Shown here piece after piece: positions 2,151 to 55,329 of a stretch of 64,000 nucleotides of DNA (within the stretch, counting starts at the first letter, position 1; each line of letters begins with the position of its first letter). The translations under genes and the position numbers were made by a program. This DNA comes from Anaerolineae bacterium. Its GTDB lineage: Bacteria > Chloroflexota > Anaerolineae > 4572-78 > NAK82. The notes beneath the pieces were generated by a model. That model searched no databases and was not told where the DNA came from. It worked only from the letters and a program-made list of their open reading frames with translations. The stretch is taken from assembly GCA_034436775.1 (NCBI GenBank), contig DAOTVI010000082.1, forward strand, positions 2,753 through 66,752. Direction: 5' to 3'.

Positions 2151-2884
2151 GCTTTGGCCGGGGATGTACCGGTGGCCCTGCTCCGCTCTGGCACCACATA
2201 GATGCCCGGAAGGCTGACCAGGGTGACCGCGCCTTTGAGAAACACATTGGCCCAGAAAATTGCCCATACGGTGGCATCCGGCAAGCCGCCCGGCAACAGC
2301 TCCTCCCACTGGCCAAAAGCGCACCAGACGAAAATCAGGCTGTCGGCCGGTATGCTGATCGCGTTGCTGACCAGCACGCGCGACCATTGCACCCGTCGGG
2401 TCACATACCGCACCCACAGGCTGTACAGCTCGGTATCGATCAGTTCGGCGATGACTTCCGCGATGATGCTGGCGATGACGATCCGCCAGGTGGGCGCCAG
2501 GACGGAGGCAAATGCACTCTGCAATGGCCAGGCAGGGTCAGCGGGAAGCCAGGCAGCAAAAGCCAGGCAACCTGCCATCACCAGGTTGATTGCACCGGCG
2601 GTAACGATGAGGATGCGTGCATGGCGTTTGCCCAACAGCTTGTGCACGAGATCACGCAATGTGAAGGTAAAGGGGTAGATAAAAGTGCCAGCATCCACAC
2701 TGAGAGACGCCACATAGGCAATTTTCAAGCTCATCAGGTCGGAGAGCATCTGGGCCGCAATGTAAGCGGCAACCACCAACATTCCTGCCGTTGGCAGCAC
2801 GACCTCAACGGGCGGCTGCGTTGGGGCGGGTGAACCGTTTTCTGGGTGGGAGCGGGGATGCGGATGGATGTCTCGTGCTCTCAT
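2147..2884 (-). CDS. VUT/YhhQ family (queuosine precursor-type) transporter
   Basis: Multi-TM; motifs DAGTFIYPFTFTLRDLVH, RIVIASIIAEVIAELIDT, SNAISIPADS; ATGA overlap with the upstream kinase. Confidence 0.85.
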   Translation of the reverse strand: MRARDIHPHPRSHPENGSPAPTQPPVEVVLPTAGMLVVAAYIAAQMLSDLMSLKIAYVASLSVDAGTFIYPFTFTLRDLVHKLLGKRHARILIVTAGAINLVMAGCLAFAAWLPADPAWPLQSAFASVLAPTWRIVIASIIAEVIAELIDTELYSLWVRYVTRRVQWSRVLVSNAISIPADSLIFVWCAFGQWEELLPGGLPDATVWAIFWANVFLKGAVTLVSLPGIYVVPERSRATGTSPAKA

Positions 2885-3834
2885 ATGAAATCCACAGCTT
2901 TCCCTTGTTGCTGCAAAAGGGTTTTGATCGCGGCGCGGCAGGGCATGTTCAGCCCTCCTCCCAGGCGCTGCACAGCGACGGCACCGGCGGCGTTCAATAA
3001 CGCTGCCAGCTGGGGCAGATCACAACGGCGCAACCATCCCCATACCAAAGCGGCCGCGACAGCATCGCCGGCCGCCGTGGTGTCGCGTACGGGCACGCAA
3101 AAACCGGCATGGAGAATGGCCTCGTCATCCCATTGGATGTAGCATCCCTGCGCGCCGCGCTTGATGACCACCAGTCGTGGGCCGCGTTCTCGCAGCGCAG
3201 CCGCCAGTTCGGGCAATGCGAGAGGGCCTGGAAGGAGAGCACGTGCTTCCTCTTCGGTGAGCGTTAACGCGGTGGTGTGGTGCAATATGTCGGCCAACGG
3301 TCCGGCAGGGCAGACATGCACTTGCGGACCAGGATCGAAAAAGACGGCTGTGCCCGCGGCATATGCGCACTGAACGGCCTGTTGTACCAGGGATATACCC
3401 AGGCGGGTGCAACTCCAGCCATCGCAGTAGAAAGCGGCGGCTTGAGAAATGGCATCGCACCAATCCCCCGGCAGGTTTGAGGGCGCGTCGAGCTTCGGGT
3501 GGTAACCCAGAAATACCGGTTCTCCCTGAGCGGGGCTCAGGATAAACACGCGCGGCGTGCGCCCGCCGGACAGCCGAAGGAGCGCACCGGTGTTCACCCC
3601 TTCACGGTCCAGCCAATCGAGCAGACGCCGCCCTGTGCCATCATCACCCACGACTCCCAGGGCCTGGACTTGCAAGCCCAGGCGCGCGGCGCCGATCAAG
3701 ACATTGGCAGCACCACCTGGGCCCACATAGAACGCGCGCACCTCCTGACGCATTCCAGGGGTTGACGGCAGCCGCTCCATCTCGAGCACGTAGTCCAGCA
3801 CCGGGTTGCCGAGCACCACGACGGATTGCGCCAT
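2881..3834 (-). CDS. PfkB/ribokinase family carbohydrate or nucleoside kinase
   Basis: GPGGAANV, VGDDGTG, VIKRGAQG, DTTAAGD motifs. Confidence 0.9.
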   Translation of the reverse strand: MAQSVVVLGNPVLDYVLEMERLPSTPGMRQEVRAFYVGPGGAANVLIGAARLGLQVQALGVVGDDGTGRRLLDWLDREGVNTGALLRLSGGRTPRVFILSPAQGEPVFLGYHPKLDAPSNLPGDWCDAISQAAAFYCDGWSCTRLGISLVQQAVQCAYAAGTAVFFDPGPQVHVCPAGPLADILHHTTALTLTEEEARALLPGPLALPELAAALRERGPRLVVIKRGAQGCYIQWDDEAILHAGFCVPVRDTTAAGDAVAAALVWGWLRRCDLPQLAALLNAAGAVAVQRLGGGLNMPCRAAIKTLLQQQGKAVDFI

Positions 3835-15859: not shown

Positions 15860-18800
15860 CTAGCTCCCCGGTGTCTCAGAGACTTTTGATGCAGTATCTG
15901 CGTTCGGTCTGTCGGGCGAGGATTGCCCCAAGATCCGATGAAGCGTTTCCTCCAATTCCTTAAATTGCACCGGCTTCGCGATATATCCATCCATCCCCGC
16001 CTCCAGGCAACGTTCACGGTCGCCCTTCATCGCGTGGGCGGTCATGGCAATAATGGGCACGTGACGGCCGGTACCGCGCTCTTGCCTGCGGATCAGCGCC
16101 GTCGCCTCAAAACCGTCCATCTCGGGCATTTGCACGTCCATTAATATCAGGTGATAAGGGATGGTCTGCCACGCCCGTACCGCCTCCAGGCCATTGGCCA
16201 CCACATCCACCCGATAACCCAGCTTCTCCAGCATCCGCAGTGCAACTTTCTGATTGATCACATTGTCTTCGGCCAGCAAGATGCGCGCCTTAGGCGGGCT
16301 TTCAACGGTTCCGCCTTCCGCTGCGGCAGGCAAGGGGGCAGTGGGTAACGGATGGGTAGCCCGGCGATGGCCGGCCGCGATCAAAGCCTCCAACAGCTGT
16401 CGGTTGCGCACCGGTTTGGTGAGCACGGCATCCACACCGACCGAACGCAATTGATCAGCCTCTGGCCGTCGGTCCATCGAGGAAAGCATTACCAGCGCGA
16501 CCGAATCCAGGTCATGGTTGGTGCGGATACAATTGGCCAACATCTCGCCGTCCATATCCGGCATCTGCATATCGATCAGCACCACCCGATACGGTTCTTC
16601 ATCCCTCTCGACCGTTTGGAGCAGCTTTTGCAACGCTTCACCGGCGCTTGCGACTTCCTCGGGTTGACATCCCCAGTTACGTAGTTGCTCGCGCAAGATC
16701 AGGCGGTTGGTCGCGCTGTCGTCCACGATCAGCACGCGGCGTCCGCGCAGCCAATCGGGCAAAGGCGGGACGGTCTCCTCGGCAGCCTCCATAGGCAGCT
16801 TTTCGAAAACGGCCGTAAACCAAAACGTGGAACCTTTGCCCACCTCACTCTCGGCCCCAATTTGTCCTCCCATGAGTTCAGCCAGCCTTTTTGAGATCGC
16901 CAACCCCAACCCAGTGCCACCATACTTGCGCGTGGTCGAAGCGTCTAACTGCGAGAAGGATTGGAAGAGGCGATCAAAGCGATCTTTGGGGATGCCAATC
17001 CCGGTATCCCGCACCACAAAGCGCACTGTGACGTGGGTAGCCGTCTCCTGCTCCCGGACCACGTGCAAGACTACCTCTCCCCTCTCGGTGAACTTGATTG
17101 CGTTGCCGATCAAGTTGGTGAGAATCTGGCGCAGGCGACCTGGGTCGCCTCGCACACGCGCCGGCACATTGGCGGCGATGTGACAGGCAAATTCCAGATC
17201 CTTGCGCTGCGCCTCAATGGCCAACATATCGGCAGTGTCTTCCACGGTGGCGCGCAGATCGAAGTCGAGCATCTCCAGCTCCAGTCGCCCCGCTTCGATC
17301 TTGGAATAATCCAAAATATCGTTGATGATCTGCAACAGCGATTCGGCGCTGTTATGCACCGTCTCAGCATACTCGCGTTGCTCTTTGTTGAGTGGCGTGT
17401 CGAGCAATAAACCGGTCATGCCCAAAATGGCGTTCATCGGGGTGCGGATCTCATGGCTCATATTGGCCAGGAATTGGCTCTTGGCGCGGCTGGCAGCTTC
17501 GGCCGCTTCCTTGGCCTGGCGCAGCGCTTCCTCGATCCGCTTGCGCTCGGCCAGCTCCCTCTGTACGGCTTCGTACAGGCGACTGTTCTCCAATGCGTGA
17601 CCCGCCACCGCTGTCACCGCCTGCACCAGGCTGATCTCCTCTTCGGTGAATTGACGCGGCGCGGTGGCGTCCAATCCCAATGTCCCGACAATCTGATCCC
17701 GTACCAGGAGCGGCACGATCATCAAGGTCACCGTGCCGCGGGCACGATGGAGATCGTGCACCGCGGCTGTGCGCGCATCTGTCTGGGCATTGGGAATGAT
17801 CACCGGAGCGCGGGTGGCCAGCACCTCCTGTGTGGCCGGGTTGTTGGCAAGCGGGATGACCGCCCCCAATCCCGATGGGCGATCGGGACGGCGGTATTCG
17901 GCCACCACACGCAGCGCCTGACGATCTTCGGTGAACAGGGCAAACGCCGCCTGCGGCAGGTCGAGTGCCTGTGCGAGCTCCGTGCAAATCGCTTCCAGGA
18001 CTTGATAGGGATCCAAACTGGACGCTGCAGCCATCAAAACGCGATTCATCAGCTGCAGGCGCTCCAGACTGCGACGGATTTCCTCCTCGGCCCGCTTGCG
18101 CTGGGTAATATCGTGCCCGATCCCGACAATGCCGATGACTTTGCCCGCCGCATCACGCAGAGGCACCTTGGTGGTCGCAAGCCATACCGGATTGCCTTGT
18201 GCGTCCCGTGCGGGTTCCTCGATATTCAGCAGGAGCTGACCGGTTTGGATGACGCGCTGCTCGTCCCGGTAGAATTTCTCGGCCAGTTCTCGGGGATAGA
18301 AGTCGAAATCGGTTTTGCCGAGCAGCTCATCTGGAGTGGCCGCGCCCATCAGCTGTGCCAGTGCCACGTTGCCCACAAGAAAACGGCCCTCGGTGTCCTT
18401 CACGTAAACGAAGTCCGGCAGGTTGTCGATCAGGACGCGCAGCAGATTACGTTCTGCACGCAGTTGCGCTTCCATCTCCCGGCGCCAGGTGATATCTGTG
18501 CCGATGGAGAGGATTTCCTGCAAGTTGCCGTGTTCGTCGTAAATGGGTTTGTTCGTCCATGCCACCCAGAGGCGTGAGCCATCACGGCGCATGTTCTCGT
18601 TTTCGTTGTAGCCGCCACGCTCGGGATCAGCCAGGATGCTTTCCACCATCAAATCCAGCGGACGTCCGGCCGAGTCCACCGGTGGCACAATCGTGCCCAC
18701 TACATGGTGGCCGAGCACCTCTTGGGCTGTGTAACCGAAAACCTTTTCGGCAAACTCGTTAAAGAAGGTGATACGACCCTGCGCGTCCACCCGCAGGATG

Positions 18801-21166
18801 ATGCTGTTAGCATGTTGCAGCAGCTCGCGATAACGCGCCTCACTGGCACGCCGCGCTTCTTCTGCCTGCACGCGCACGATCGCACCGCCAACGGTCGCCG
18901 CGATGGCTTCCAAGGCGCTGCGCGTGTACAGAGGTATCTCATCCTTTGTCCAGGACATCACCACAATGCCGGCAATGACCTTTTCTTCGTGCTGAACAGG
19001 CAGCAATGCAATGGCCCGCCCTGGATGTTCAGGTTGATAATTAAACAAGGCATGCAAATGGTCACAATGCGTGTAGACGGGTTCCCCGGCCATCAGCAGC
19101 CGTGTCAGCGGTGAATCCGGTGCACTTTGGGCGGTGATAGCGATGAACTCCTCAGACATTCCCTGTTGGTAGGCCAGGGACAAGCTGCCGGTGCGTTCAT
19201 CGACCAGATAAGTGGCACCACCTTCCATATCGGATACGCGCAGTGCGGCGGCGATGCACAGGCGGAATGCTTCTGCTTCCACAGCGCTCAGCGCCAGGCC
19301 CAGGTCGCGCTGAACGCGGCCCAGCTCTTCAGCGCGCACCCGTTCGGTGACGTCGCGCAGCACCCCGCGGAAGCCGATAACCTTTCCTCCGGTATCTCGG
19401 ATGACAACCGCTGTCGCTTCACACGCGATCAGTGTGCCGTCCCGACAACGTACCCACAAGGACAGAGGGGGTATGGATTGTCCACTCTGGAGCTCCTGAG
19501 CTGCCTTCAAGACCTTCTCCCACGAATCCGAGGTCAACAGCTTGTTGATGGGTATTCGGAGGAGATGTTCGACCTCATACCCCGAGAGACGATGGGCCAT
19601 TTGGTTCACATAGGTGATGTTCAAATCGGTGTCGAGCTCAAAGATGACATCGGGCAGCATTTCGGCCATCTCACGGAAGCGCGCCTCGCTCGCTTGCAAG
19701 GCCATCTGGCGCGCCTGCACCGCTTGACGCATATGTTCCAGCGTTGTCGCCAGCGTCCCAATCTCGTCGTGAGAGGGAACGGGGATCGGCTGATCATAGT
19801 CACCATGTGCCAGGCTCTGTGCCGCATGACTGATCACGGTGAGCGGCCGATTGATCGAACGGGCCAGGACAAAAGCGACCACCGTGACGAAAAGCAGCAT
19901 CAGAATAACGGCGGCCACATAGGACAGCCGTAGCCGGGTGATGTTCTGGGTGATTGTTGCGGTTCCGTGGGCAATATGTCCATCCAGGCGGGCAAGTGTC
20001 AGATTCTGCAACGCTACGACTTCCTCGGCGGGTGCGACAAGGCTGATGCTCCATCCGGGCGGCTCGACGAGCTCAAAGGCCCAAAAGTACCTCTTGCCAT
20101 CCGGGGCAGTATAGCTTTCCAGGCCACTTTCACCGCCTTGGATGCGCTCAATCACAGCACGGAACGGGCCATTTTTGATTTGATCGAGATAGATTGAAAG
20201 TGGCTGGCCCCACTGAAACTCCCCGCTCAGCTCAGCATCAATTCCCAAGAAGGGGGCTGCTTGGGGTGGGAAAGCGATGAGCTGGCCGCTGCGTACCATC
20301 AAGAAGGCAAAGCCGGTCTGCTGAACGTGAACACTATCGACATATTCGCTCAGCACATTGAGCGTGACATCCAGGCCTACCACACCGACCAGTTCTGAAT
20401 TCCCACGATAGACAGGGGCAATACAGGAAACCATCCAGCCCATGCCGGCCGGATCCCAATAAACACCGGTCCACACCGGTTTGCGTTCGGGATTGTGTTG
20501 TGCATCGGCCAGATAGTAGAACTCATACGAAGTCATATCTTGATCGGGCGAGATGGTGGCGTCGGCGTCTATGTCAATGGGTTCACCATCCATAAAGCGC
20601 ATGCCGCGCGTGAGGTGGCTCTGCGTGTTAATATAAGCTTGGCCGACCAGTGGATTGCGCTTCCCAATGCTGGCAAAGACCAGATCCAGGTACTCGGTCA
20701 GATAGATCTCCTGAAGTAGCTCGGCACTCACCTGCCCGTTCTCATCCAGCCCGGGATTGAGCACGACCAGCCACGAATAGTCACCTCCACTCAAACTGGA
20801 AAATGCTCCGTTGGCACCGATGCCATAGCGGTGCGGACGCGCGTAGCGCTTTAATGTATCGGCATGGTTATAGAGGTAGGTGGCATAGTCTGCTAAATAG
20901 GTGACATCCGTCTCGACGTGGGAGAGCTGCAAGGCACGTCGAGCGGAAACGTCTTCTGCTTGCGTTTCCAAAGCCTTTTTCAGCTGTTCGGTGAGCAGGA
21001 TGGACCAATCGTGCACGGCCATTTCGGCCACCTCACGATTGGTTTGCTGAGCGATCACAGAGGTCTGTTCCAGCGTGAGATAAGCGGCTGCTCCGCCGCC
21101 CAGGAAAGACACCGCCATAACCAGGATCAGCGCCAGAAGCAATTTGACGAAACGGCTCACCCTCAT
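15860..21166 (-). CDS. hybrid sensor histidine kinase: TM-dCache-TM-HAMP-PAS-GAF-PAS-PAS-GAF-HisKA-HATPase-REC-REC
   Basis: [15 protein letters not shown]-box, DTGIG and GGTGLGL boxes, two REC domains (LIDMQMP, LMDVQMP), extracytoplasmic WTGVYWD Cache motif. Confidence 0.93.
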
Positions 21167-21200
21167 TGTCTACCACCTCTCCCATCAAGCACCGGCGAGG

Positions 21201-21476
21201 TTATGCATGCCACTCGATCTCATCCACGACGCCGGCCAGTACGGCACGCACCGCACCATCCGGCTCACGACCGAGAATTTGACGCCCCGAATTGCCTTCG
21301 TCAATGACGAATACGATGTCGCCCGGACCAGCCTGGGCGACATCGACACAGATGTCGTACTCGCCGGTCGGATTGCCGTTTAAATCCAGCTGATCGACCA
21401 CAAGCAGGCGGCGCCCTTCGTAGATCTCCAGCTTGATCGTACTCATCACACTTCCTCGCACGCGTCCGATGTACAT
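21201..21476 (-). CDS. EutN/CcmL family microcompartment vertex (BMC-P) protein
   Basis: MYIGRVRGSVMSTIK...VDVAQAGPGDIV...GNSGR...VRAVLAGVVD; start reassigned to 21476. Confidence 0.9.
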   Translation of the reverse strand: MYIGRVRGSVMSTIKLEIYEGRRLLVVDQLDLNGNPTGEYDICVDVAQAGPGDIVFVIDEGNSGRQILGREPDGAVRAVLAGVVDEIEWHA

Positions 21477-21504
21477 TGCAGAACCTCGTCCGTTTCGCAT
21501 TCGG

Positions 21505-22185
21505 TCATGGGTTTTCCATAAGCAGGCGTTCTTCGTTCAAGATTTGGAGACTGGCCTGGGCGCTGACTCCCAGACGCGTCGCGCCTGCTTCTATCAGGGC
21601 GATCGCATCCGCATAAGTGCGAATGCCACCCGCTGCCTTGATGCCTACAGCAGGTGGCGTCACACGACGCAATAGGGCTACGTCGTGCACCGTTGCCCCG
21701 CTCGGGCCATAGCCCGTTGACGTTTTTACGAAATCCACTCCTGCGGCGACTGCCAGCTGACAGGCGCGTACTTTTTCATCGTCGCTCAGCAGGGCACATT
21801 CCAAGATGGCCTTGCACCGCGCACCGTGATCGTGGCAGAGCCGCACGATAGCTCCCAGGTCATGCTCCACCAGGTCATAGCGGCCATCCTTGAGAGCGCC
21901 CAAGTAGATCATCACATCCAGCTCATTGGCGCCCCCGCGCAGTGCGCTGCGTGCCTCGTACCATTTCACCCAGGTGCTCGTGCCACCCAGGGGGAAACCG
22001 ATCGCACATGCCACAGCGATGCCTGTGCCGCGCAGCAGACGACTCGCGAGATGAACATGGACTTCATTGACCGCCACGGCGGCAAAGCGATGCTCACACG
22101 CCTCCCGGCATAGACGAGCGATTTGCTCGGGTGTGGCGTCGGCGCGTACCAAAGTGTGATCGGTGTAGGATGCAATGCGGCTCAC
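21505..22185 (-). CDS. deoC: deoxyribose-phosphate aldolase, copy 2 (no N-terminal extension)
   Basis: DHTL, IGFPLG, ELDVM, FVKTSTG (Schiff-base Lys), IKAAGGIR. Confidence 0.9.
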   Translation of the reverse strand: MSRIASYTDHTLVRADATPEQIARLCREACEHRFAAVAVNEVHVHLASRLLRGTGIAVACAIGFPLGGTSTWVKWYEARSALRGGANELDVMIYLGALKDGRYDLVEHDLGAIVRLCHDHGARCKAILECALLSDDEKVRACQLAVAAGVDFVKTSTGYGPSGATVHDVALLRRVTPPAVGIKAAGGIRTYADAIALIEAGATRLGVSAQASLQILNEERLLMENP

Positions 22186-22205
22186 AGGCCGCCCCCTTTG
22201 CCGCT

Positions 22206-23093
22206 TCAGGATGCTGAGCGCGCGCCTTCTATGATTTTAAGGCTGGCACTGGCGCCGATACGGGTGGCTCCAGCCTTGAGCATCGCCACAGCGTCCTGAT
22301 AGGTTCTGATTCCGCCGGCCGCTTTGATCCCCATATCCGGCCCCACTGTCTGCCGCATCAGCATCACGTCATGCAAGGTTGCGCCACCCGGACCAAACCC
22401 GGTCGATGTTTTGACGTAGTCGGCGCCCGCCTCTTTGGCCAGCTGACACGCCTTGATTTTTTCATCATCGGTCAACAACGCGGCTTCGATAATCACCTTG
22501 CAGATGGCACCGTGGTTATGACAAGTGCGCACCACAGCAGCGATATCTTCTCTGACCAAGTCGTAATCTTTGCTTTTGAGCGCGCCGATGTGGATCACCA
22601 TATCTATCTCAGTGGCGCCATCGTTGATCGCCTGCTGTGTTTCATAGCACTTGACATTGGTGGGTGTTGCACCGAGTGGAAATCCAACCACCGAACAGAC
22701 TCCGACTCCTGACCCGCGCAACAGCTGGGCACACAATCGCACGTGGACGGGATTGACGCATACCGTAGCAAAACCGTACTGGCGTGCTTCCTCGCACAGC
22801 TGAGCAATTTGGGCGTAAGTGGCGTCCGGCTTGAGCAACGTGTGGTCAATATAACGCGCGAGCTCCTGGGGCGTTACCTGTACATCCGATAAAATACCCG
22901 GGCGCCGCGTATCATCCCGAATCGTTTTCGAGAGGCGTTGCGCACCTTTCTCCTCACATTGCTGGCAAGAGGACGCGGTGTCCGTTGCTCGTTGCAAGCC
23001 ACCTGACCGACCGCTCTGCTCATTCAAAGCAGCCAACACCTGTCTGGTTATCTCCTCAACTAATGAATCAATCGTTTTGGGATCTAACTGCAT
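22206..23093 (-). CDS. deoC: deoxyribose-phosphate aldolase, copy 1, with N-terminal encapsulation-peptide-like extension
   Basis: [29 protein letters not shown]; N-terminus [18 protein letters not shown] followed by CQQC; probable start 23093. Confidence 0.93.
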
Positions 23094-23134
23094 ATGACCT
23101 CTCGATATTGACATCATCCTCTGGAAAGCCTCTT

Positions 23135-23845
23135 CTATCTCTTGAGGTAGCGTGCCTCAATGGCCATCATCTTGTCAATGCGCGGCTGATGGCGACCTCC
23201 CTCGAAATGGGTGCTCAACCAGGTCTTGACAATCTGCTTTGCCAAATTGGGACCCAGCAAACCGGCGCCCAGCGTCAGCACATTCGCGTCGTTGTGCGCG
23301 CGGCTATTGACGGCAGACATCTGGTCATAGCACATTGCCGCACGGATCCCCGGCACTTTGTTGGCGACCATACACGAGCCAATGCCTGCACCATCAATGA
23401 TGATGCCCCGGAAGGCAGCTCCGTTGGCCACATGTCGAGCGACCGCATAAGCGAAGTCGGGATAATCCACCGCTTCCTTGCTGTGCGTGCCGACGTCCAA
23501 CACTTCATAGCCCAGCTCGATGAGGAAGGGTTTCAGCATCTCTTTGAGCTCATAGCCTCCGTGGTCGGCCCCTAAAGCCACCACCTTGCCTGTCGCAGGT
23601 GCGGGGGTTGCCTGACCACTTCTAGCGGGTGCCTCCTCAATCAGGATCTTGCGCGCTAACGCGATCTCGCGCGCCATAGGAGTGACGATGGTGCCTGGCT
23701 CGATCTGGATTTTGCTCCCAGGTTCCAATTGCTCGATCTCTTGGCTGGTCAGCAGCCTATGTTCACCACGCCGGGTCTCGCGCAGCACGCGATGAAGCAC
23801 ATGGCGCACTAAATCTCTGATTTCTGCTTCACGAGGGTTCATCAT
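23135..23845 (-). CDS. rpiB: RpiB/LacA/LacB family sugar-phosphate isomerase with N-terminal encapsulation-like helix and extra domain
   Basis: [33 protein letters not shown]; N-terminal [14 protein letters not shown] and [10 protein letters not shown]. Confidence 0.9.
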
Positions 23846-24092
23846 AACAAGTGTCCACGGCACGTGAGAAACTGACGCTGGATCAGCCTAACGCGCATCT
23901 AGAACGGATTATAGGATGCCCACAAACGTGAGTCAAAAGGGGTGTTCAAGGCTTCGTCGGAACTGGGAGCAAATAGGGAGGCCAAAAGAGCACAGGCGGT
24001 ATCCGCAACGGACAGAAAGGCACGCACCGGCAATTCCACGCCCAGGATGCCGAATGTCACCGCCTCCAAAGGGTGATCACCGACGAGGTGTT

Positions 24093-25856
24093 TTAACGCC
24101 AGTCGGTCAGTGGGCCGCGTTTGCCGTAGTTAACCGCTGCGATGACCAGATCAAAAATGTTGACCATCTGATCTCCATTGAAATCGACCAGGGGGTCGCT
24201 GCCTCCGTAATTGCCAGCCACGGCGGCTATATCGAAGATGTTGACCAGGTTATCGCGATTCACGTCTCCGGCAAGTAGCGCTATCGTGCCGAGCGAGCCA
24301 GACGGTGTCGTCTTTTGTGCGCTCAGGAATCCAGGCCGCACTGCCCACAGACATGGTCCCCTCTGCCCCGGCGGCAGTTGAAAGCGGCCATGGGCATCGG
24401 TGGTGGCGACTTGATCCCCTGAAAGGGATGCGGTGCATGGTTGGCCGCTCAGATAGATCGCGGTGCCATCATGCGTGTTCCGACTCTGTAAGAGCACAGT
24501 GCCGCTGATAGGCGTTCCAGGTCCCGCTCCGCCTGTAACCCGCTGGACTGCCGCGTAGGCATCCACGCGCGGTGTGACACGGCCATTCCTCCGGTCAGTG
24601 ATGGGCACACCCGTTTCCTTGAGGATGCTCTCGACTTGCCCGGCCGAAAGCCCTGGCTGCGCCTGCAGCAACAAAGCAGCGACGGCAGAAGCGTGTGGCG
24701 TGGCCATAGAAGTCCCAGAACGGCTGCTCACCCCACCCCCTAGCCCGGCCGAGGTGATCACCGCTCCCGGGGCCAACAGGTCCAAGGCGGGACTGCTGTT
24801 GCTCGTGCAGGCGATCTGATCCACTGCCGTGCTGGCATCGGTGCAGATGGGGTTCGCGCCCCCCCATGTATACGCTCCCAAGTTGGCATCATAGGTGCTG
24901 CCGACAGCGATCACACTGGAAATACATGCCGGGGTCATCATCTTATCGGCCATAGCCCCGTTACCTGCCGCGGCAAATACAATGATGCCCGCACGTTGGG
25001 CTGCCTGCACCGCAGAGGCATATAGCATGCTATTGGCATCCGCCGCGTCGCATATGCCGGAATAGGCCCCTCCCCCCAGGCTGAGATTCATAATGCGCAC
25101 GTTTAGACGTGGCTGATTGGCGACGACCCAATCGATGCCTGCCACCACATCTGAAGTCCAACCGCTGCCGGCACTGTTGAGCACACGAACGGCCACGATG
25201 CCGGCATCCGGCGCGATGCCACGCGGTGCGACAACCCCACGCCCGGTGACAATGCCGGTGACGTGTGTGCCGTGTCCGTTCTCGTCGCGGGCGCTGTCGC
25301 TCTCATTGGTGTTCGCCGGTGGACACGTGCCATGGTTAAAGCAGTGTTGCGCCACAATGCTGTCATTGATATCCGGATGGTTGGGATCATATCCGCTGTC
25401 AAGCACGGCGACATTGACACCGGCGCCGGTGAACCGGAATTCACCCCACACACGGTCGGCACGGATCACGGAGGCACTTTCCCCTAATGCTGCCTGTACC
25501 GGTAGATCCAATGCGACGGCCTGCACCAATGGGTTGCTGAGCAACGCTTGCCAGCCCTGCGGAGTCACCGTACCGGCCAGACCCGGCACAACGGAGTAGC
25601 GATGGAGCGGTTGAAAATCCGCGCCGGGGATGCTGGCCAACACCACATCTTGCGCCTGGGCCACCACTTTTGCCTGTGCTGCGATGTCGGCACCCTCCAG
25701 AGGAGGCCGCAACACCACAACCACGCGCATCGATTGGAATGCATCCTCTCCCCATTGGGCCAGACAGGGCGGCGCCATAGATGCCAGAAGGGCAAGCAGA
25801 CCCAGCCATAACCACAGTCGAGGACCGATGCGACAGCCGTGATATATGGAGTGCAT
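24093..25856 (-). CDS. secreted S8 (subtilisin-like) serine protease with C-terminal X-module and dockerin
   Basis: Signal peptide, propeptide, triad VLDSG / NGHGTHVTG / GTSMATPH; C-terminal GDVNRDNLVNIFD...DFNGDQMVNIFD duplicated Ca-binding loops. Confidence 0.92.
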   Translation of the reverse strand: MHSIYHGCRIGPRLWLWLGLLALLASMAPPCLAQWGEDAFQSMRVVVVLRPPLEGADIAAQAKVVAQAQDVVLASIPGADFQPLHRYSVVPGLAGTVTPQGWQALLSNPLVQAVALDLPVQAALGESASVIRADRVWGEFRFTGAGVNVAVLDSGYDPNHPDINDSIVAQHCFNHGTCPPANTNESDSARDENGHGTHVTGIVTGRGVVAPRGIAPDAGIVAVRVLNSAGSGWTSDVVAGIDWVVANQPRLNVRIMNLSLGGGAYSGICDAADANSMLYASAVQAAQRAGIIVFAAAGNGAMADKMMTPACISSVIAVGSTYDANLGAYTWGGANPICTDASTAVDQIACTSNSSPALDLLAPGAVITSAGLGGGVSSRSGTSMATPHASAVAALLLQAQPGLSAGQVESILKETGVPITDRRNGRVTPRVDAYAAVQRVTGGAGPGTPISGTVLLQSRNTHDGTAIYLSGQPCTASLSGDQVATTDAHGRFQLPPGQRGPCLWAVRPGFLSAQKTTPSGSLGTIALLAGDVNRDNLVNIFDIAAVAGNYGGSDPLVDFNGDQMVNIFDLVIAAVNYGKRGPLTDWR

Positions 25857-26816
25857 TCAGTCGGCCCTTTCGAGTTGCTGCAATTCAGCCTGAGCGATCG
25901 GATTACCCGGATCGAGCGCCAACACACGCTGAAAGCAGATGCGCTTTTCGCTGATTTGATGCGCAACTAATCCCTTTCCCAGCCAGGCCTCGCTATTAGC
26001 AGGGTCTCGTTCCACCGCACGGCTGAACAGCTCGTGGGCAAGCTCCAGATTGCCCTGTTGCATCGCACGGCGGCCCTGCTCTGTCAGCGTAGCAGCCACT
26101 TCGCCGGCGCTTTGTTCTGCAACCGGCATGCCACCATTGTGCACGACCACCGCACCCTTCAAAGCGGCTGCGCGACGCCTCTGATACGCAACTGAAAGGA
26201 CGATGAGCATCAGCAGCCCCCCTCCAATCCCGAGAAGCCACCAGCCCCATAGAGCGGTGTCTTGTCTCTCCGACAAGCTGACGTCCGAGGGGGCAGACAA
26301 TACCAGGTTCTCACTGACCACCAGGATGGTGGTCAAATTTGAGGAAACCAGCTGAGCCCGCACGATCTCCACAGAATAGGGGCCATTGCCCAGAATGCGG
26401 AACGCGATGGTCGCCAGCACACCTTGCCCGCTGACAGGCGGTGCCGGATTGAGCAGCGTGGCCACAAAGGTGATCAACCCGGCCGTGGCATCCACCTTAT
26501 TAGTCACGACAAAACGTTCGTCGGCAGCTAACAAGGGGCCCGGAGCAATTTGGATGCCCTCTAAACGTGGATTGGCGTCCTCGACTTGGAGTTGGCTCGG
26601 ATCATAGCGCAGCTGCACATCGACGCCGTACAGATCTACGACGTCGGCCACCATAAGATTCACGAGCACCCGCCTCTCGTCCTGGAGGAGGACGGGCTGC
26701 AGATATACGCGCGCTTGCCCTTGAGCAGACACGCTCATGATAGGAGTCAGCGCAACAAACAGCGCTAAGACGAGCATCAAGAGCTTCATTATCGTGCGCA
26801 AGAACACCCTACTCAC
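25857..26816 (-). CDS. cohesin-domain protein with C-terminal TM helix and TPR region
   Basis: Signal peptide; DLYGVDVQLRYDPSQLQVEDAN...GIQIAPG...SGQGVLATIAF; TM followed by RRR; TPR AHELFSRAVERDPANSEAWLG. Confidence 0.8.
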   Translation of the reverse strand: MSRVFLRTIMKLLMLVLALFVALTPIMSVSAQGQARVYLQPVLLQDERRVLVNLMVADVVDLYGVDVQLRYDPSQLQVEDANPRLEGIQIAPGPLLAADERFVVTNKVDATAGLITFVATLLNPAPPVSGQGVLATIAFRILGNGPYSVEIVRAQLVSSNLTTILVVSENLVLSAPSDVSLSERQDTALWGWWLLGIGGGLLMLIVLSVAYQRRRAAALKGAVVVHNGGMPVAEQSAGEVAATLTEQGRRAMQQGNLELAHELFSRAVERDPANSEAWLGKGLVAHQISEKRICFQRVLALDPGNPIAQAELQQLERAD

Positions 26817-26884
26817 CCCATCTCGGAGGACTCAGCCCCGCACAAACCTCTCTGACCCAACACCCTCGTTCAACTGAATAGTAT

Positions 26885-27550
26885 TTAACGCAACACTACT
26901 TCGATCGCCTGGGCATTTCTGTTCACCAGCGTTACCGTCTCGATTGTGATATCGGTGTCCGGAGCGATGGCCGCCTGCCCCAAGATCGTGGCAACAGTTC
27001 CGCTGCCATGGAATGCGGCAGCGTCGCCCAATTGAGTCGCAATATAGCGAATGATCCCCTTTGCATTATCCACATCGTTCACGGCCACGAAATCAGGTCG
27101 GGGTACTTCTCCCGGTTTGATTTGGATCCCGCTTCTCTCTGCATCGGCATCCGCGACCTGCCATTGTGTGGGATTAAATCGGATTGTCACATCCACTGCA
27201 TATAAATCTCGCACATTGTCCACCTGCACCATAAACGCCCTGTCATCCGGCGTACGCATCAGGCGCAGCGTCGCAATATCGGAAGAGTGCACACGTTCAA
27301 CCGGCTCCGCGGTCTTTTGCGTGAGTGAAGCAGCCTCTGTGTCACTCGACATAGACGATGCCGTCAGGGTATTCAGCGTCGAATCACCCTCTCGGGACAA
27401 ACCGGCCACAGATGGGGAAGGTTCACCTCCAATGGGGGTTTCGACCATAGCTGGCCCGGCGCCCCCGCAGCTCGCCAGGCCAAAAGCGCAGAGCAACAGC
27501 ACAATCGCTAATCCCCAATGCAGATAGCTGCGATGTCGCACGGAAATCAT
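26885..27550 (-). CDS. cohesin-domain lipoprotein
   Basis: Lipobox LASC (start reassigned to MISVR at 27550); DLYAVDVTIRFNPTQWQVADAD...GIQIKPG...PDFVAVN...GSGTVAT. Confidence 0.8.
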   Translation of the reverse strand: MISVRHRSYLHWGLAIVLLLCAFGLASCGGAGPAMVETPIGGEPSPSVAGLSREGDSTLNTLTASSMSSDTEAASLTQKTAEPVERVHSSDIATLRLMRTPDDRAFMVQVDNVRDLYAVDVTIRFNPTQWQVADADAERSGIQIKPGEVPRPDFVAVNDVDNAKGIIRYIATQLGDAAAFHGSGTVATILGQAAIAPDTDITIETVTLVNRNAQAIEVVLR

Positions 27551-27955
27551 AGACCCTTTCCCGACTGCGCTAACGAAACTTGATAATGGAACGGAAGTGT
27601 GACCAATTGTAACGAACGGCGCCGTAAAGGGCAACATAGCTGAAGCGGATGATAGCCACATTTCCAAGCGCACAAGGTCACCATGCCAGATGGGAAGGAT
27701 AATTGTGCCATACCAATACCTCCATCGCCATGATCACATGGATAGAGCGGTTCTCCTCGCCGAGGGATCGCAACACCCGGTGCGCGCCTCTCCCTCTCGC
27801 ATTTTCATGATAGAGATAGAAAGGGAGCGATCTCAACTATGGCAGTTCTGAAGATCATCCCTCAAAAACACCGAGGCCTCATCCGTGTTGTCACGGATAA
27901 GGCCTCGGTGGGTGCCACGCGGGTCAAGGTTTCGGTGTCCCCAAGAGCGACACTG

Positions 27956-28936
27956 TCAACGGGGTGGGATCAACAAGACCTGACCGGCTCGGATATAGTT
28001 GGGATTGGGGATATTGTTGTATGCAGCTAATTGCCAGACATTCACCCCGAAGCGGCGCGCAATGGAGAACAGCGTATCACCATACTGCACAACATACCGG
28101 CTGGGTGCCGGGCCGGGTCCGGGGGGCATAGGTCCAGGTGCCGGGATGATAAGCAGCTGTCCCACATAGATCAGGTTGAGATTGGGAATGTTGTTCAGCG
28201 ATGCCAGCTGCCAGATGCTCACCCCAAAGCGACGCGCAATCGAGTACAATGTATCACCCCGTTGCACGACATAGCGCGTCGGTGTCGGTGGCGGCGTCAC
28301 CGTCATCGGCGGTGGGGGTGTCAGGGTTACCGGCGGCGGGGGTGTCGGGGTCATCGGCGGCAGCGTCGGAGTCGGCGGGGGTGGACCACCACCGCCAACG
28401 ATGATGTTACCACCCTGCGAAGAGGCGGGCAGCTGTTGCCCCTGGGCATTGGCCAGATTGACCAGGCTGAACGTGAGATCAACGGTGCCTGCTGCCTGAC
28501 CGCGAAAGACAACGGTGGCCAACAGCCCGCTGCCGTTGACCGGGGCTTTCGGCGGCAACTGGGTCAGCGCATAACGGATGACGCCAGTTGCATTGTCAGC
28601 AGAGTTCAGCGCGACGAAATCAGGAGAGGGGAAATTACCGGGTTGGATCTGAACCCCGTCGCGGCCGGGATCGGCATCTTGGACTTGTAAGGCAGCTGGG
28701 TTGAAACGCAGCTCGATATCGGCAGCATATAGCCCGGAAGCGTTCTCAATGCGGATCTCGACCGTGGCGGTCTGCCCAATGCCTATTTGTTGGGTGCCTG
28801 GCTGGACACGTACCACGGTGCCTGCCTGCATAGCAGCAGCCGGGCCGACCGCGAAGAAACTGCCAATCATCATTGCTACAAGCACGATCCCAACTATCGC
28901 CGGCAACGAATGCCTGATATTCCTTCTCTGTATCAT
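27956..28936 (-). CDS. secreted cohesin-Pro/Thr linker-2x LysM protein
   Basis: [22 protein letters not shown]...GVQIQPG...PDFVALN...[10 protein letters not shown]; [17 protein letters not shown] and [17 protein letters not shown]. Confidence 0.88.
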
Positions 28937-45901: not shown

Positions 45902-46264
45902 ATGAAGCGCAAGTATCGCTTGCGAAATCGGGCTGATTTCCAGCGCACCCGGCAAGAGGGGAAATGTTGGGGGCATCGTTTGGTCGTGCTCTGTGCATTG
46001 CGCAACAATTTAGCATACAGCCGCTTCGGTTTCGCGGCTAGCCGGCGCATCGGCAAGGCGGTCGTGCGCAATCGAGCACGCCGCCGTATGCGTGAGATCA
46101 TTCGGGTGAATATGCCCGCCATCGCGCCGGGATGGGATGTCGTCTTGATCGCACGTCCGGCCTTGTTGCAAGCCACTCACAGCGAGCTGACAGATGCCAT
46201 ATGTGCGTTGTTGCAACGGGCCGGTTTGTGGGTTGCGCAGACCCACGTGCTGCCGATAGGATGA
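45902..46264 (+). CDS. rnpA: ribonuclease P protein component
   Basis: [29 protein letters not shown]. Confidence 0.95.
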
Positions 46265-46277
46265 GGGTGGTTCGCGC

Positions 46278-46508
46278 GTGAAGTACATCGTCCTGGCATT
46301 AATCCGTTTCTATCAGCGCTTTATCTCCCCCGGCCTGCCCCCTTCCTGTCGATTCGAGCCGAGCTGCTCCCAGTATGGATATCAGGCGATCGAACGCTAT
46401 GGGGTGCTGCTGGGTGGTTGGCTGGCACTTAAGCGCATCGCACGCTGTCATCCCTTTCACCCCGGAGGGTATGATCCCGTGCCGGATCTGCCGGGGCGAT
46501 CGCGATGA
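46278..46508 (+). CDS. yidD: membrane protein insertion efficiency factor
   Basis: YQRFISP...[10 protein letters not shown]...[14 protein letters not shown]. Confidence 0.95.
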
Positions 46509-46578
46509 TGGACTGGCCAAGGCATTGGGCGAATTGTTTGGAATGATCTGCTGTTTGGAATCGGGAGGTTTTTGAGCT

Positions 46579-47430
46579 ATGTGGGATGCCTTTGTCGGGC
46601 TGATTGCAGATGCCCTCACATTAAATAATGAGTTTTTGAGGAGCATCGGCGTCCCCTATTCGTTTGGTTTTGCGATCATCCTGTTCACGCTGATCATTAA
46701 AGTGTTGACTCTTCCGCTCACTTTTAAGCAGCTTCAGGCAGCCCGCAAGATGCAGGAGCTGCAGCCGGAGATCCAGAAGCTGCAGAAAAAATACAAGGAC
46801 GACCGCGAAAAGCTTTCCAAAGCCCAGATGGAGCTCTACAAAGAAGCTGGGGTCAATCCACTGGGTGGTTGCCTGCCGACGTTGGTCCAAATGCCCATTT
46901 GGTTTGCCCTGTACCAGGCTCTGTTTCAGTTAGCTTCGGAGGGCAACCTCAAGGAAGGATTTTTCTGGATTCCCAGCCTGGCCGAGCCCCACGACATGAG
47001 CTGGATTTGGCCATTGCCTCAGACTCCCGAGGGCTGGTTACACGCTGCGGCTTTGCTGGTGCTGCCGATTCTCACGGTGGTCACCCAGATCATTGTGCAA
47101 AAGATGTCAACACCCCAGAGCTCGGACTCCCAGCAGGCGATGATGAGTCAGATGATGATGTTCATGCCGATTATGTTTGGCTTTTTCGCTTTGCAGGTGC
47201 CGCAGGGCTTGGTGCTGTATTGGGTGACCTCTAACGTTTTCACGTTGGTGCAGCAATACTTTATCAACAAACAGAGCGAAGCTGCTAAAGCCAAGAAAGA
47301 GGGGAACGCTCCCACAACGCTTGGCATAGAGGAAGCGACCGCCGCTGTGGCCACACCCGGCACGGACGTGGTGAAGAAAACAGAGTTGGCGAAGAGAGCT
47401 AGGGATGGCAAACGCAAGAGCAAGCGTTGA
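46579..47430 (+). CDS. yidC: YidC/Oxa1 membrane protein insertase (short form)
   Basis: KMQELQPEI, LYKEAGVNPLGGCLP, LYWVTSN. Confidence 0.95.
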   Translation: MWDAFVGLIADALTLNNEFLRSIGVPYSFGFAIILFTLIIKVLTLPLTFKQLQAARKMQELQPEIQKLQKKYKDDREKLSKAQMELYKEAGVNPLGGCLPTLVQMPIWFALYQALFQLASEGNLKEGFFWIPSLAEPHDMSWIWPLPQTPEGWLHAAALLVLPILTVVTQIIVQKMSTPQSSDSQQAMMSQMMMFMPIMFGFFALQVPQGLVLYWVTSNVFTLVQQYFINKQSEAAKAKKEGNAPTTLGIEEATAAVATPGTDVVKKTELAKRARDGKRKSKR

Positions 47431-48154
47431 GATCACAGCCAGGACAGTTGAGGAAGCGATCGAACGAGGGCTTGCCCAGCTAGGCGCCTCGCGTGAGGAA
47501 GTGGAAATTGAGGTGCTCCACCCCGGACGCAGTGGGGTGTTCGGGCTGGGCGCCCAGGATGCAAGCGTGCGGCTGACGCGCGTCGTCGCGTCTCACTCTG
47601 AGAGCCAGGCAGCCATCGAGCAGGTCACCGAGCGCCTTCCCGGCGAAGAGGCGGCAGAATTGCCGCTCCATCCGGACTGGCCCCCTGAAACGGTGGCACT
47701 GGCGGTGGGTCTGCTGCAGGGCTTGATCGACCGCATGGGCATCAAGGGGAAAGTGCTCGCGCGGGTCAGCGATGAATTCTCAGACGAAGAGGGCGTACAA
47801 ACCTTAGTGTTGAACGTGACCGGCAAGGACCTGGGCATCCTGATCGGACGTCAGGCGGAGACCTTACAAGCGCTCCAATACATCGTGCGGCTGATGCTCA
47901 GCAAACGCCTCACCCGCTGGGAACCTGTGGTGGTCGATGTGGAATCCTACCGGGTACGACGGCAACGTGCATTGCAGCGTCTGGCTTTGCGGATGGCGGA
48001 GCGTGCTGTGTCCACCCGGCGCCGCGTCATCTTGGAAGCGATGCCGGCAAACGAGCGTCGCATCATCCATCTCGCCTTGCGAGAACATCCGGGCGTTATC
48101 ACCCGAAGTGTCGGCGAGGGTGATCGCCGCAAGGTCACCATCATCCCCAAATAA
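47405..48154 (+). CDS. jag: Jag/KhpB (EloR) RNA-binding protein: Jag-N, KH, R3H
   Basis: ARTVEEAI, LIGRQAETLQALQ, ERRIIHLAL. Confidence 0.92.
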   Translation: MANARASVEITARTVEEAIERGLAQLGASREEVEIEVLHPGRSGVFGLGAQDASVRLTRVVASHSESQAAIEQVTERLPGEEAAELPLHPDWPPETVALAVGLLQGLIDRMGIKGKVLARVSDEFSDEEGVQTLVLNVTGKDLGILIGRQAETLQALQYIVRLMLSKRLTRWEPVVVDVESYRVRRQRALQRLALRMAERAVSTRRRVILEAMPANERRIIHLALREHPGVITRSVGEGDRRKVTIIPK

Positions 48155-48246
48155 CGTTTCGTCCTGAGCGGACGCGTCCGAGCATATGCTCGGCTCGATA
48201 ATTGGGAGAAAAGTATCCCGAGACTCGGCCTGACACTTTTCCGCTG

Positions 48247-49119
48247 ATGAATGAGATCACGTTTGTTCCCGATTACTTGGTCATCGGAGCGATTACCCGG
48301 GATGTCATCCCGGGTGGTTTCACTCTGGGGGGCACGGTCACCTATGGCGCCATTACAGCCAGCCGGCTGGGCAAGCGGGCTGCGATTGTGACCAGCGCAG
48401 CACCCGATTTGGTACTGCCGGAAAATTTTAGAGATATCCCGTGTATCATCGTTCCCTCCGAGCAGACCACCACATTTCGTAATGTCTATGTGAACGGTAT
48501 GCGCCAGCAATACGTCGAGGCGTTGGCCCATCCGATCGATGCGCACCACATACCGCCCGCTTGGTATGCGGCACCCCTTGTGCACCTGGGCCCTTTAGTC
48601 GGTGAGCTGGATGAAACGATGGTGCACCTCTTCCCTCATTCGCTCGTCATCGCTACTCCACAAGGCTGGTTTCGTTCATGGGATGAAAGGGGACATGTCA
48701 CGTTGGGGTGTTGGCCTCGCGCCGAGTTGCTGTTACCCCACCTGACTGCCCTGATCTTGAGCGACGAAGATATACGCGGCGATCCGGGCTGCATTGAGCG
48801 CTTCGCCGGGATGACGCGCACGTTGGTCGTCACCCATGGCGCTCGCGGCGCCACGGTGTATCACCGCGGCGAGAAATGCCATCTACCCACACGTCCGGCG
48901 CGTGAAATTGATCCTACTGGAGCCGGTGACGTGTTTGCGGCTGCCTTTGTGGTGCGTCTGCACGAAATCCTTTTGGAGCGCGGAGTGGAAGACCCGTGGG
49001 AAGCTGCACGCTTCGCCAATGTAGTGGCATCTTTTTCGGTCGAGGGGATGAGTTACTCAGCCATCCCCCAACGCACCCAAGTTGAAACCTATCTTGCCAG
49101 TCTGGCGCCAGTGCCCTGA
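48247..49119 (+). CDS. PfkB family carbohydrate kinase
   Basis: GGTVTYG, DPTGAGDVFAAAF; start 48247 or 48202. Confidence 0.88.
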   Translation: MNEITFVPDYLVIGAITRDVIPGGFTLGGTVTYGAITASRLGKRAAIVTSAAPDLVLPENFRDIPCIIVPSEQTTTFRNVYVNGMRQQYVEALAHPIDAHHIPPAWYAAPLVHLGPLVGELDETMVHLFPHSLVIATPQGWFRSWDERGHVTLGCWPRAELLLPHLTALILSDEDIRGDPGCIERFAGMTRTLVVTHGARGATVYHRGEKCHLPTRPAREIDPTGAGDVFAAAFVVRLHEILLERGVEDPWEAARFANVVASFSVEGMSYSAIPQRTQVETYLASLAPVP

Positions 49120-51437: not shown

Positions 51438-52336
51438 AAAAGGAAAACTTTATCCGGTTGCCACCAACCGGGTTTGTCGTCTGCCGGTCGCAAGAGGGCG
51501 CGCAAGTTGCCGTCGGGTGTGTAGATGCGCAGCGGGAATGCCGCAGGGGCATCGGGAATGGATACCCACTGGCCCTGTGTCACGCGCATGGCCATCTCCT
51601 CGGTGACCTCCAGGCGTGGTAGGTCTTGCAATGCGGTGTCTAACGGGTGGAGATATTGCATCCACTCACCCTGAACAACCGCGGTGCGCAGCTGTTCAAG
51701 GGTGATGGCTTCCTCGATGCGCCAGGCACCGCTGGCACGGCGTTGCAACGCGCACACATGCGCCCCGACACCCAGCAAAACGCCGAGATCATGAGCCAGC
51801 GAACGCACATAAGTGCCTGGAGAACAGCGAACCTCCAGGGTGAGCAAAGGGGGCTGCCACGCTCTCATCTCCAGCGCGATGATCTCGATCGAGCGCGGCT
51901 TCAACTGAACCGCAATTCCGCGCCGCGCCAGGCGGTACAGCCGTTCACCTCCCTGCCGCACAGCAGAAAACGGGGGCGGCAACTGCTGCTTCATAGGGCG
52001 TAACTGCTCTAAAGCGCGTTCGATCTCTTCGACCGACAGCGCAGGTAAGGGTGTCTCGCGGACGACCCTGCCGGTTGCGTCGTACGTATCGGTCTCGATG
52101 CCCAGGTGAAACGTGGCATGGTAGAGTTTCTCGCCCCGCATGAGATACTCAGCGACGCGGGTGGCCTGTCCCACGCACACCAACAGCACACCGGTGGCGA
52201 TGGGATCCAGCGTGCCGGCATGCCCGACGCGACGCACGTCCAACAGGCGCCGCACCTCGGCAACCACGTCGTGCGAGGTGAGGCCATACGGTTTGTTGAT
52301 GTTGAATATACCATGGGCGCGCCTTTTGTCGCTCAT
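51434..52336 (-). CDS. truB: tRNA pseudouridine(55) synthase
   Basis: NKPYGLTSHDVV, GHAGTLDP, GTYVRSLA. Confidence 0.96.
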   Translation of the reverse strand: MSDKRRAHGIFNINKPYGLTSHDVVAEVRRLLDVRRVGHAGTLDPIATGVLLVCVGQATRVAEYLMRGEKLYHATFHLGIETDTYDATGRVVRETPLPALSVEEIERALEQLRPMKQQLPPPFSAVRQGGERLYRLARRGIAVQLKPRSIEIIALEMRAWQPPLLTLEVRCSPGTYVRSLAHDLGVLLGVGAHVCALQRRASGAWRIEEAITLEQLRTAVVQGEWMQYLHPLDTALQDLPRLEVTEEMAMRVTQGQWVSIPDAPAAFPLRIYTPDGNLRALLRPADDKPGWWQPDKVFLL

Positions 52337-52707: not shown

Positions 52708-52719
52708 AATCTCCAGGAG

Positions 52720-55314: not shown

Positions 55315-55329
55315 CCCAGCACTCCGACT

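Follow-up and report, generated by a model that had tools for sequence, protein, structure and literature searches.

A cluster of four genes was analysed on the minus strand of a 64,000-nucleotide (nt) stretch of DNA from an Anaerolineae bacterium (assembly GCA_034436775.1, contig DAOTVI010000082.1, positions 2,753 to 66,752; this whole stretch is hereafter called the window, and all coordinates are counted from its first letter). The cluster encodes an RpiB-like protein, two deoxyribose-phosphate aldolases (DeoC1 and DeoC2) and a vertex protein of the EutN/CcmL family, and it is very likely the cargo-plus-vertex half of a split bacterial microcompartment (BMC; here a metabolosome) of the type SPU3, in which SPU stands for sugar phosphate utilization. 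Comparison with related loci showed that a nine-gene operon is the ancestral state and that the clade of the window, which is related to Ardenticatenia, has a split state with its own conserved promoter. As seen from the relatives, breakage of the ancestral operon into two left the shell genes at a second site; the middle six genes were observed at another locus in these relatives, and the same arrangement presumably holds for the genome of the window.

The four-gene operon and its gene content

The four open reading frames (ORFs) form a head-to-tail operon (21201-23863, minus strand) in the order RpiB-like protein, DeoC1, DeoC2 and vertex protein, with intergenic gaps of 17-41 nt. Families were assigned by using Pfam and NCBIfam profiles, and start sites were chosen by comparison with relatives and with the gene calls of public assemblies. 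The first gene (23135..23845, minus strand) encodes an RpiB-like SPU cargo protein of 236 amino acids (aa; PF02502, E 2e-54; TIGR01120), for which ATG at 23845 is the likely start and a GTG-start reading from 23863 is possible. DeoC1 (22206..23093, minus strand; 295 aa; TIGR00126, E 1e-85) is the signature enzyme of the cluster. Its ORF is readable from 23117 and its likely start is ATG at 23093 (MQLDPK...); the TIGR00126 core covers residues 85-296, preceded by an N-terminal extension of ∼76-84 aa. The second aldolase, DeoC2 (21505..22185, minus strand; 226 aa; TIGR00126, E 9e-71), has no such extension and probably starts with GTG at 22185. The last gene (21201..21476, minus strand; likely start ATG at 21476, ORF readable from 21500) encodes a BMC-P vertex pentamer protein of 91 aa (PF03319, EutN_CcmL, E 2e-18). 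An initial annotation, made from the DNA letters without database searches, had described rpiB-deoC-deoC-eutN/ccmL as one run of genes, and four consecutive minus-strand ORFs with the matching Pfam and NCBIfam families bear this out; the gene coordinates it gave are right, since the starts inferred from relatives and public gene calls agree with them.

The same annotation had reported that the window lacks BMC-H or BMC-T shell genes, aldehyde dehydrogenase (AldDH) and PduL, which was confirmed by both tblastn searches and Pfam scans. When the window was searched with four BMC-H proteins nothing better than E 0.29 was obtained, and the Tdp, BMC-H, P1, AldDH, Ts and P2 proteins of a complete Chloroflexi SPU operon gave no match in it. 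Pfam scans revealed no BMC, Aldedh or PduL/PTAC family in the other 40 sizeable ORFs of the window, which encode housekeeping genes, surface proteins and sensor kinases. According to the 2021 catalogue of BMC loci, a satellite locus contains one or more shell genes, with enzymes optional, and never both BMC-H and BMC-P (Sutter et al., 2021; PMC8217296). The cluster has exactly this kind of content, namely one BMC-P and three enzymes, with no BMC-H in the window. Its RpiB-then-DeoC order is that of SPU3, and it has one member of the BMC-P triplet of SPU loci (the ortholog of P3), P1 and P2 being located in the separate locus of its relatives. The other features of SPU3 (a CcmP-like Tdp, a Ts without PduS, one BMC-H and an N-terminal helix on AldDH) were seen in the complementary loci of relatives or in complete operons. 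It should be noted that the CcmP-like BMC-Tdp of a metagenomic shell locus (L127:10001-10639), whose precomputed annotation is PF27545 CsoS1D_N, matched nothing in Pfam-A as used here at E <= 0.001, so that a genome search restricted to PF00936 would miss that shell protein.

Fission of an ancestral nine-gene operon

Many Chloroflexi have a nine-gene operon with the order RpiB-DeoC-Tdp(CcmP-like)-BMC-H-BMC-P1-AldDH-Ts-BMC-P2-BMC-P3, which we examined in the loci L082/L083, L084 and L087. All nine genes were present in ∼24 loci of a metagenome scan, and in a further ∼40 metagenome loci, mostly cut by contig ends, RpiB and/or DeoC stood directly upstream of Tdp. The composition of this operon is that of type SPU3 in the 2021 catalogue, which also describes SPU3 loci as 'sometimes split into two locations' (PMC8217296, Supplementary Data 2). 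The window cluster corresponds to genes 1, 2 and 9 of the operon (RpiB, DeoC and P3) with a second DeoC inserted. Its BMC-P is 63-71% identical to the terminal BMC-P (P3) of the complete operons L083, L084 and L087 and 37% identical to P2, and, judged by these identities, it is the ortholog of P3, the last of the three BMC-P genes in the complete operon. The closest genomes to the window are Ardenticatenia/Anaerolineae metagenome-assembled genomes (MAGs), and the same satellite cluster was found in L001-L005 and L168-L173. In close relatives the same four genes occur in the same neighbourhood, with proteins 76-100% identical to those of the window, an S8 peptidase and cohesin proteins upstream (where the locus reaches that far) and a hybrid kinase of 1768 aa downstream. 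A related satellite, L086, has three genes only, RpiB-DeoC-P3, with a DeoC-P3 gap of 2 nt.

The complementary part of the operon was identified in the metagenome scan at L127, where Tdp-H-P1-AldDH-Ts-P2 occur; RpiB and DeoC are absent from the 10 kb upstream, and P3 is absent downstream. An exact-sequence cluster look-up of the L127 proteins, followed by contig look-ups, led to this six-gene locus in twelve places (L127, L174, L175, L176, L177 and L180-L186), including a 7-kb contig of the MAG Nak82 (L174) and a contig of 206.9 kb (L175; DAIQPJ010000005.1); no RpiB, DeoC or P3 stands beside the six genes wherever their flanks are visible. The AldDH of these loci begins with an N-terminal helix (EQIQKIVAQVVAQV) that is followed by a proline-rich linker. 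The Tdp and P2 of L127 share 90% clusters with PWH12924 (DDG58_14825) and PWH12929 of Nak82, and the Nak82 locus holding these two proteins was typed as SPU3 (main) in the 2021 catalogue (PMC8217296). The satellite BMC-P of Nak82 is DDG58_11265, ∼700 locus tags from DDG58_14825. Compared with complete operons, the satellite side showed identities of 47-60% for RpiB, 53-62% for DeoC and 63-71% for P3, and the shell side showed identities of 51-64% for AldDH, 54-66% for Ts and 48-70% for P2. Thus, the two halves are almost equally distant from the complete operons, as would be the case if the operon had split once, in the ancestor of the window clade.

These distances also bear on a different explanation, according to which the cluster is a cargo module for another type of microcompartment and the shell-plus-AldDH chassis is shared among several cargo modules. 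Such sharing would be in line with HO-type genomes that have an extension-bearing PF01791 aldolase at a separate location and with EUT modules that occur as satellites of SPU3 and SPU6 (PMC8217296), as well as with the split main loci, which have no signature enzyme of their own. However, the similar distance of both halves from complete SPU3-type operons argues against it, and the only partner shell loci found in the clade were the complementary six-gene SPU3 sets. We consider this explanation very improbable.

All four genes of the operon are under strong purifying selection. The ratio of nonsynonymous to synonymous divergence (dN/dS) was 0.03-0.10 for the enzymes (RpiB, 0.03-0.05; DeoC1, 0.05-0.10; DeoC2, 0.05-0.07) and 0.005-0.025 for BMC-P, the most constrained protein of the operon, which retains 97-100% amino-acid identity across lineages at dS 0.6-1.5. 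A further explanation should be weighed here, namely that the cluster is a relic of a lost microcompartment whose shell and AldDH were deleted, so that the enzymes serve cytosolic deoxyribose-phosphate catabolism and the vertex gene and the helices are leftovers. No shell hexamer or AldDH is present in the 64 kb and the main locus of the window genome was not found, as would be expected of a relic, and the DeoC-P3 junction of L086 is as tight as after a clean deletion of the six middle genes. Nevertheless, a pentamer without a shell would not be expected to be so conserved, and the dN/dS of BMC-P therefore argues against relic status. In addition, the helices are conserved whereas the linkers drift, and intact complementary six-gene shell loci persist in the same clade. 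A relic is thus very improbable in our opinion. The split operon also has a predicted promoter of its own: a sigma-70-type sequence (TTGACT-17 nt-TATAAT; 23908..23936, minus strand) that agrees with the consensus at 11 of 12 positions and is located ∼60 nt upstream of the rpiB start. The promoter block CTTTTGACTCAC...ATCCTATAAT is invariant in five lineages, and the surrounding intergenic DNA is variable.

It had been proposed in the initial annotation that the shell of this microcompartment is encoded elsewhere. For the clade this holds, as it has the separate Tdp-H-P1-AldDH-Ts-P2 locus, and it presumably holds for the window genome as well. The strongest case for both halves in one genome is the sequencing run SRR5214706, from which both were obtained: the satellite L005 (MAG SRR5214706_bin.41) and the main locus L176, which comes from the assembly of that run and is identical to L175. 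The GC content at third codon positions (GC3) is ∼0.60 in both L005 and L176, and for each half a long contig exists as well (356.7 kb for the satellite and 206.9 kb for the shell locus); GC3 of the window is ∼0.67.

Several observations, on the other hand, weigh against a split microcompartment in the window organism. First, the shell/AldDH locus of its own genome was not found, the collections holding only a 10-kb contig of this population. Second, in Nak82 (GCA_003130875.1) GC3 of the 7-kb shell contig (L174, QEXY01000189.1) is 0.86 (0.79-0.92) versus 0.62 (0.59-0.65) for the 119-kb satellite contig (L002, QEXY01000143.1). The shell contig is probably mis-binned, and because GC3 differs this pair does not count as same-genome evidence. 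Third, of the two halves found in the JGI metagenome 3300005573, one has a codon GC of 0.58 and the other of 0.77. Fourth, the case for encapsulation was built from sequence only, and the single-sequence structure models were poor (mean pLDDT 48 and 43). Finally, the second part of the DeoC1 extension, which reads AGADRxASTLG in complete operons, is replaced in the window clade. No shared flanking genes were found to link L127 to the window. When the AldDH and P1 of a complete operon were used as protein queries, the matches listed were saturated by ∼80-90% identical Chloroflexi proteins and did not include the shell locus of the closest relative. With the 7-kb contig of Nak82 probably mis-binned, what the 2021 catalogue lists for this MAG as SPU3 (main) may come from another relative, one of higher GC content. 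Both JGI metagenomes considered as sources of paired halves, 3300005573 and 3300027863, contain a satellite and a main locus; they were rejected as same-genome evidence, with the satellites only ∼81% identical to the window at the DNA level and GC3 of 0.58 versus 0.77.

The surroundings of the shell loci were also recorded. A metallophosphoesterase gene lies past P2 wherever the contig extends (L174, L175, L177, L180-L182 and L185), and on contigs that are long enough the next gene encodes a transporter of the amino-acid-permease family. An NTP_transf_5 protein is also encoded downstream of the six-gene locus in L175, L181 and L185, and a class II fructose-bisphosphate aldolase (PF01116) is divergently transcribed upstream of it in L181-L183. 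These neighbours may be functionally linked to the shell locus, for example by nucleotide dephosphorylation or the use of triose phosphates.

Putative cargo proteins and a proposed pathway

The RpiB-like protein consists of an N-terminal helix, a conserved motif of ∼40 aa, a linker and the RpiB fold, the PF02502 domain being confined to residues 95-232. Its extension aligns over the full length with those of RpiB in complete SPU3-type operons, and the protein as a whole aligns from end to end (53%) with the RpiB of one complete SPU operon. The putative encapsulation helix (residues 4-25; 23771..23836, minus strand) has a hydrophobic moment of 0.83, the highest in the protein; V13, R14 and R19 are invariant in 33 SPU RpiBs, and the segment is helical in a low-confidence single-sequence structure model. 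The conserved motif comprises residues 29-70 (23636..23761, minus strand) and was defined from the alignment of the same number of sequences (33), in which P56, A58, R59, A62 and R65 are invariant and G43 and T55 nearly so; its dN is 0 in comparison with L002. With the pattern ..LVT..D....P.G......G.[IL][IV]TP[LM]AR..A..R.[IV], the RpiB extension is more than a helix and a loose linker. The region behind the helix was called a less conserved, unstructured linker in a study of 2024 (PMC11585597). A weak, sub-threshold match of the motif to the C-terminal end of PF15953 PDU_like was also noticed (E 0.0016 in L083 and 0.089 in the window).

The catalytic Cys66 of Escherichia coli RpiB is replaced by Asp151 in the window protein (GAT codon at 23393..23395, minus strand), as revealed by alignment of its motif iDGaG with iCGtG of the PDB chains 1NN4, 3HE8 and 3PH3. 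This Asp is invariant in all 33 SPU RpiBs aligned, and the Cys-to-Asp substitution has been reported for all SPU RpiBs; an SPU6 RpiB showed negligible isomerase activity and forms a complex with the aldolase (PMC11585597). Because Asp replaces the catalytic Cys, and SPU6 RpiB is inactive and aldolase-bound, the window RpiB is, by analogy, probably no isomerase but a partner or scaffold to which the aldolase binds.

DeoC1 is 57-62% identical to the DeoC proteins of complete SPU operons along its full length, extension included. Its putative encapsulation helix (residues 3-25; 23019..23087, minus strand) has a hydrophobic moment of 0.72, and in both DeoC1 and RpiB the helix ranks among the 14-residue stretches of greatest amphipathicity within the protein. 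In an alignment of 38 sequences (the window protein and 37 other DeoCs, those from complete operons adjoining shell genes), T16 and V19 of the helix are invariant and D4 and E13 nearly so, and a variable stretch follows the helix. Between the window and five relatives, dN of the helix was 0.04-0.11 versus 0.20-0.76 for the linker, so that the helix is 3-8 times more constrained. A conserved helix with a drifting linker is the pattern expected for a targeting helix on a flexible tether, and DeoC1 may well be built in this manner. The catalytic residues Asp164, Lys228 and Lys257 (D102, K167 and K201 of E. coli) fall in invariant columns, with the motifs EIDMV, VKTSTG and IKAAGG in DeoC1 and ELDVM, VKTSTG and IKAAGG in DeoC2. 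The DeoC1 linker also has a C-x2-C pair (SCQQCEEKG; window 22950-22990, minus strand) that is retained across the split clade (SCSRCEERG, ACPRCDEQG); linkers of some complete operons have 4-5 Cys (CNCSDGSCVAHCA) and those of others none. Such a pair in the tether may form a metal or redox site.

DeoC2 and the DeoC1 core share 57% identity, and the related satellite L086 has no DeoC2. A neighbour-joining tree places DeoC2 as the sister group of the DeoC1 proteins of the satellites, apart from housekeeping aldolases. DeoC2 is a diverged tandem duplicate that lost the extension. Its origin as a recruited housekeeping aldolase was considered and rejected, as its nearest relatives are the DeoC1 genes of its own clade.

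Taken together, these data support two earlier proposals and update a third. The amphipathic N-terminal helices predicted on RpiB and DeoC1 are present, with the hydrophobic moments given above, and are conserved in SPU homologs. The use of DeoC plus a tagged RpiB as the SPU signature is also well founded in this case, as the extensions align over their full length with complete SPU3-type operons, Asp replaces Cys and the catalytic triad is kept. By contrast, the description of SPU BMCs as largely uncharacterised experimentally is out of date, as an SPU6 aldolase has been found active and an SPU RpiB inactive as an isomerase (PMC11585597).

From knowledge of the families and from the SPU6 work (PMC11585597), we infer the following pathway. 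Deoxyribose-5-phosphate would enter the shell, into which the amphipathic helices at their N-termini would draw DeoC1 and the RpiB-like protein. Kept together with the RpiB-like protein, DeoC1 would split the substrate into glyceraldehyde-3-phosphate and acetaldehyde, and a helix-tagged AldDH encoded at the other locus would convert acetaldehyde to acetyl-CoA inside the shell. The BMC-P of the window (P3) would cap the shell vertices together with P1 and P2. The helix-less DeoC2 would be either cytosolic or carried into the shell bound to DeoC1 or RpiB.

A shell might also be dispensable, if the tagged RpiB, DeoC1 and the pentamer formed a condensate or small complex without hexamers. However, shell loci exist in the clade, and to our knowledge there is no case of a BMC-P that works without BMC-H; we regard a shell-free assembly as extremely improbable. 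Encapsulation peptides are reported to be able to drive cargo condensation (PMC12339742), and a full-length SPU aldolase aggregates when expressed alone (PMC11585597), both of which would be compatible with such an assembly.

Regulation, neighbouring genes and relation to known systems

A hybrid sensor histidine kinase of 1768 aa (15860..21166, minus strand) starts 34 nt past the BMC-P stop. It contains dCache, HAMP, PAS and GAF domains and further families, and occurs in the same position in L001-L005 (81-99.6% identity), being absent beside the satellite in L086. No terminator-like site was found in 20800-24400, and so none between the BMC-P gene and the kinase, and no Rfam family matched within or upstream of the operon. 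Thus, the kinase may be co-transcribed with the operon and is a candidate regulator that could sense an inducing signal. On this basis one might speculate that the split is functional: the locus for the shell and AldDH would provide a general chassis for handling acetaldehyde, loaded on demand by the cargo operon through its own promoter and the kinase, with DeoC2 tuning the amount of aldolase inside versus outside the shell. We regard this as unlikely; if true, nature would offer here an example of one microcompartment shell served by exchangeable cargo modules under separate regulation.

Immediately upstream of the operon, a block at 24093-28936 (minus strand) encodes an S8 subtilase together with three secreted proteins that have cohesin domains; TPR repeats occur in one of the three, and two LysM domains with proline-rich linkers in another. 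The block is conserved in L002-L004 and may be a cell-surface scaffold system of this Chloroflexi lineage. The window also holds an rnpA-yidC-jag cluster (45902-48154, plus strand), a cluster often located near the replication origin, and a nusA-ylxR-infB-rbfA-truB operon (51434-57144, minus strand). Genes for two sugar kinases of the PfkB family are located at 2881-3834 and 48202-49119, a long way from the operon.

The closest described system is SPU3 itself (Sutter et al., 2021; PMC8217296), with which the two loci of the clade share the enzymes (AldDH, PF01791 and PF02502), the N-terminal targeting helices on aldolase and AldDH, and a shell of one BMC-H, a BMC-P triplet, a CcmP-like BMC-Tdp and a BMC-Ts without PduS. 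They differ in the clean, clade-wide complementary fission, with the signature enzymes and one pentamer on one side and the shell and AldDH on the other, in the separation of the two terminal BMC-P genes, which are adjacent in complete operons, and in the added helix-less second aldolase. The SPU6 proteins of Chloroflexi bacterium GWB2_54_36, whose aldolase cleaves deoxyribose-5-phosphate (Dwyer, Sutter and Kerfeld, 2024; PMC11585597), are similar in several aspects: the aldolase has a ∼70-aa N-terminal extension that opens with an amphipathic helix and the D/K/K triad, RpiB has an N-terminal helix, a long linker and Asp in place of the catalytic Cys, and the two genes are adjacent. In contrast, the AldDH helix of SPU6 is C-terminal, its Tdp belongs to another clade, it has no Ts and its operon is contiguous. 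The window proteins, moreover, belong to the SPU3-like lineage.

Other satellite or split loci include ccmK3/K4, HO type I (two BMC-P and an aldolase), the ACI AldDH, the SPU7 aldolase and split EUT1, and enzyme-bearing satellite loci are known for the HO, ACI, MIC3 and SPU7 types (PMC8217296). These loci likewise encode shell proteins and/or enzymes at a distance from the main locus, so that they can be regulated separately. They mostly hold accessory shell proteins or a single enzyme, whereas here the whole set of signature enzymes left the shell locus. What is particular to this case is the clean complementary split, the separated terminal BMC-P genes, the helix-less aldolase and the attached kinase.

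In summary, the cluster belongs to an already catalogued type of organelle, one for the breakdown of the DNA sugar; it is a neat example rather than a new system, and it leaves the knowledge of SPU function unchanged. It provides a matched set for heterologous expression, in which two tagged cargos, a helix-less aldolase paralog and the third pentamer stand against the six-gene shell/AldDH set, and which would be useful for studying cargo targeting in SPU and the reason for three BMC-P paralogs. For annotation, orphan EutN/CcmL genes beside DeoC and RpiB in Chloroflexi can be read as the cargo half of a split SPU3 organelle, and for evolution the cluster offers a clean natural example of the fission of a microcompartment operon into complementary halves.

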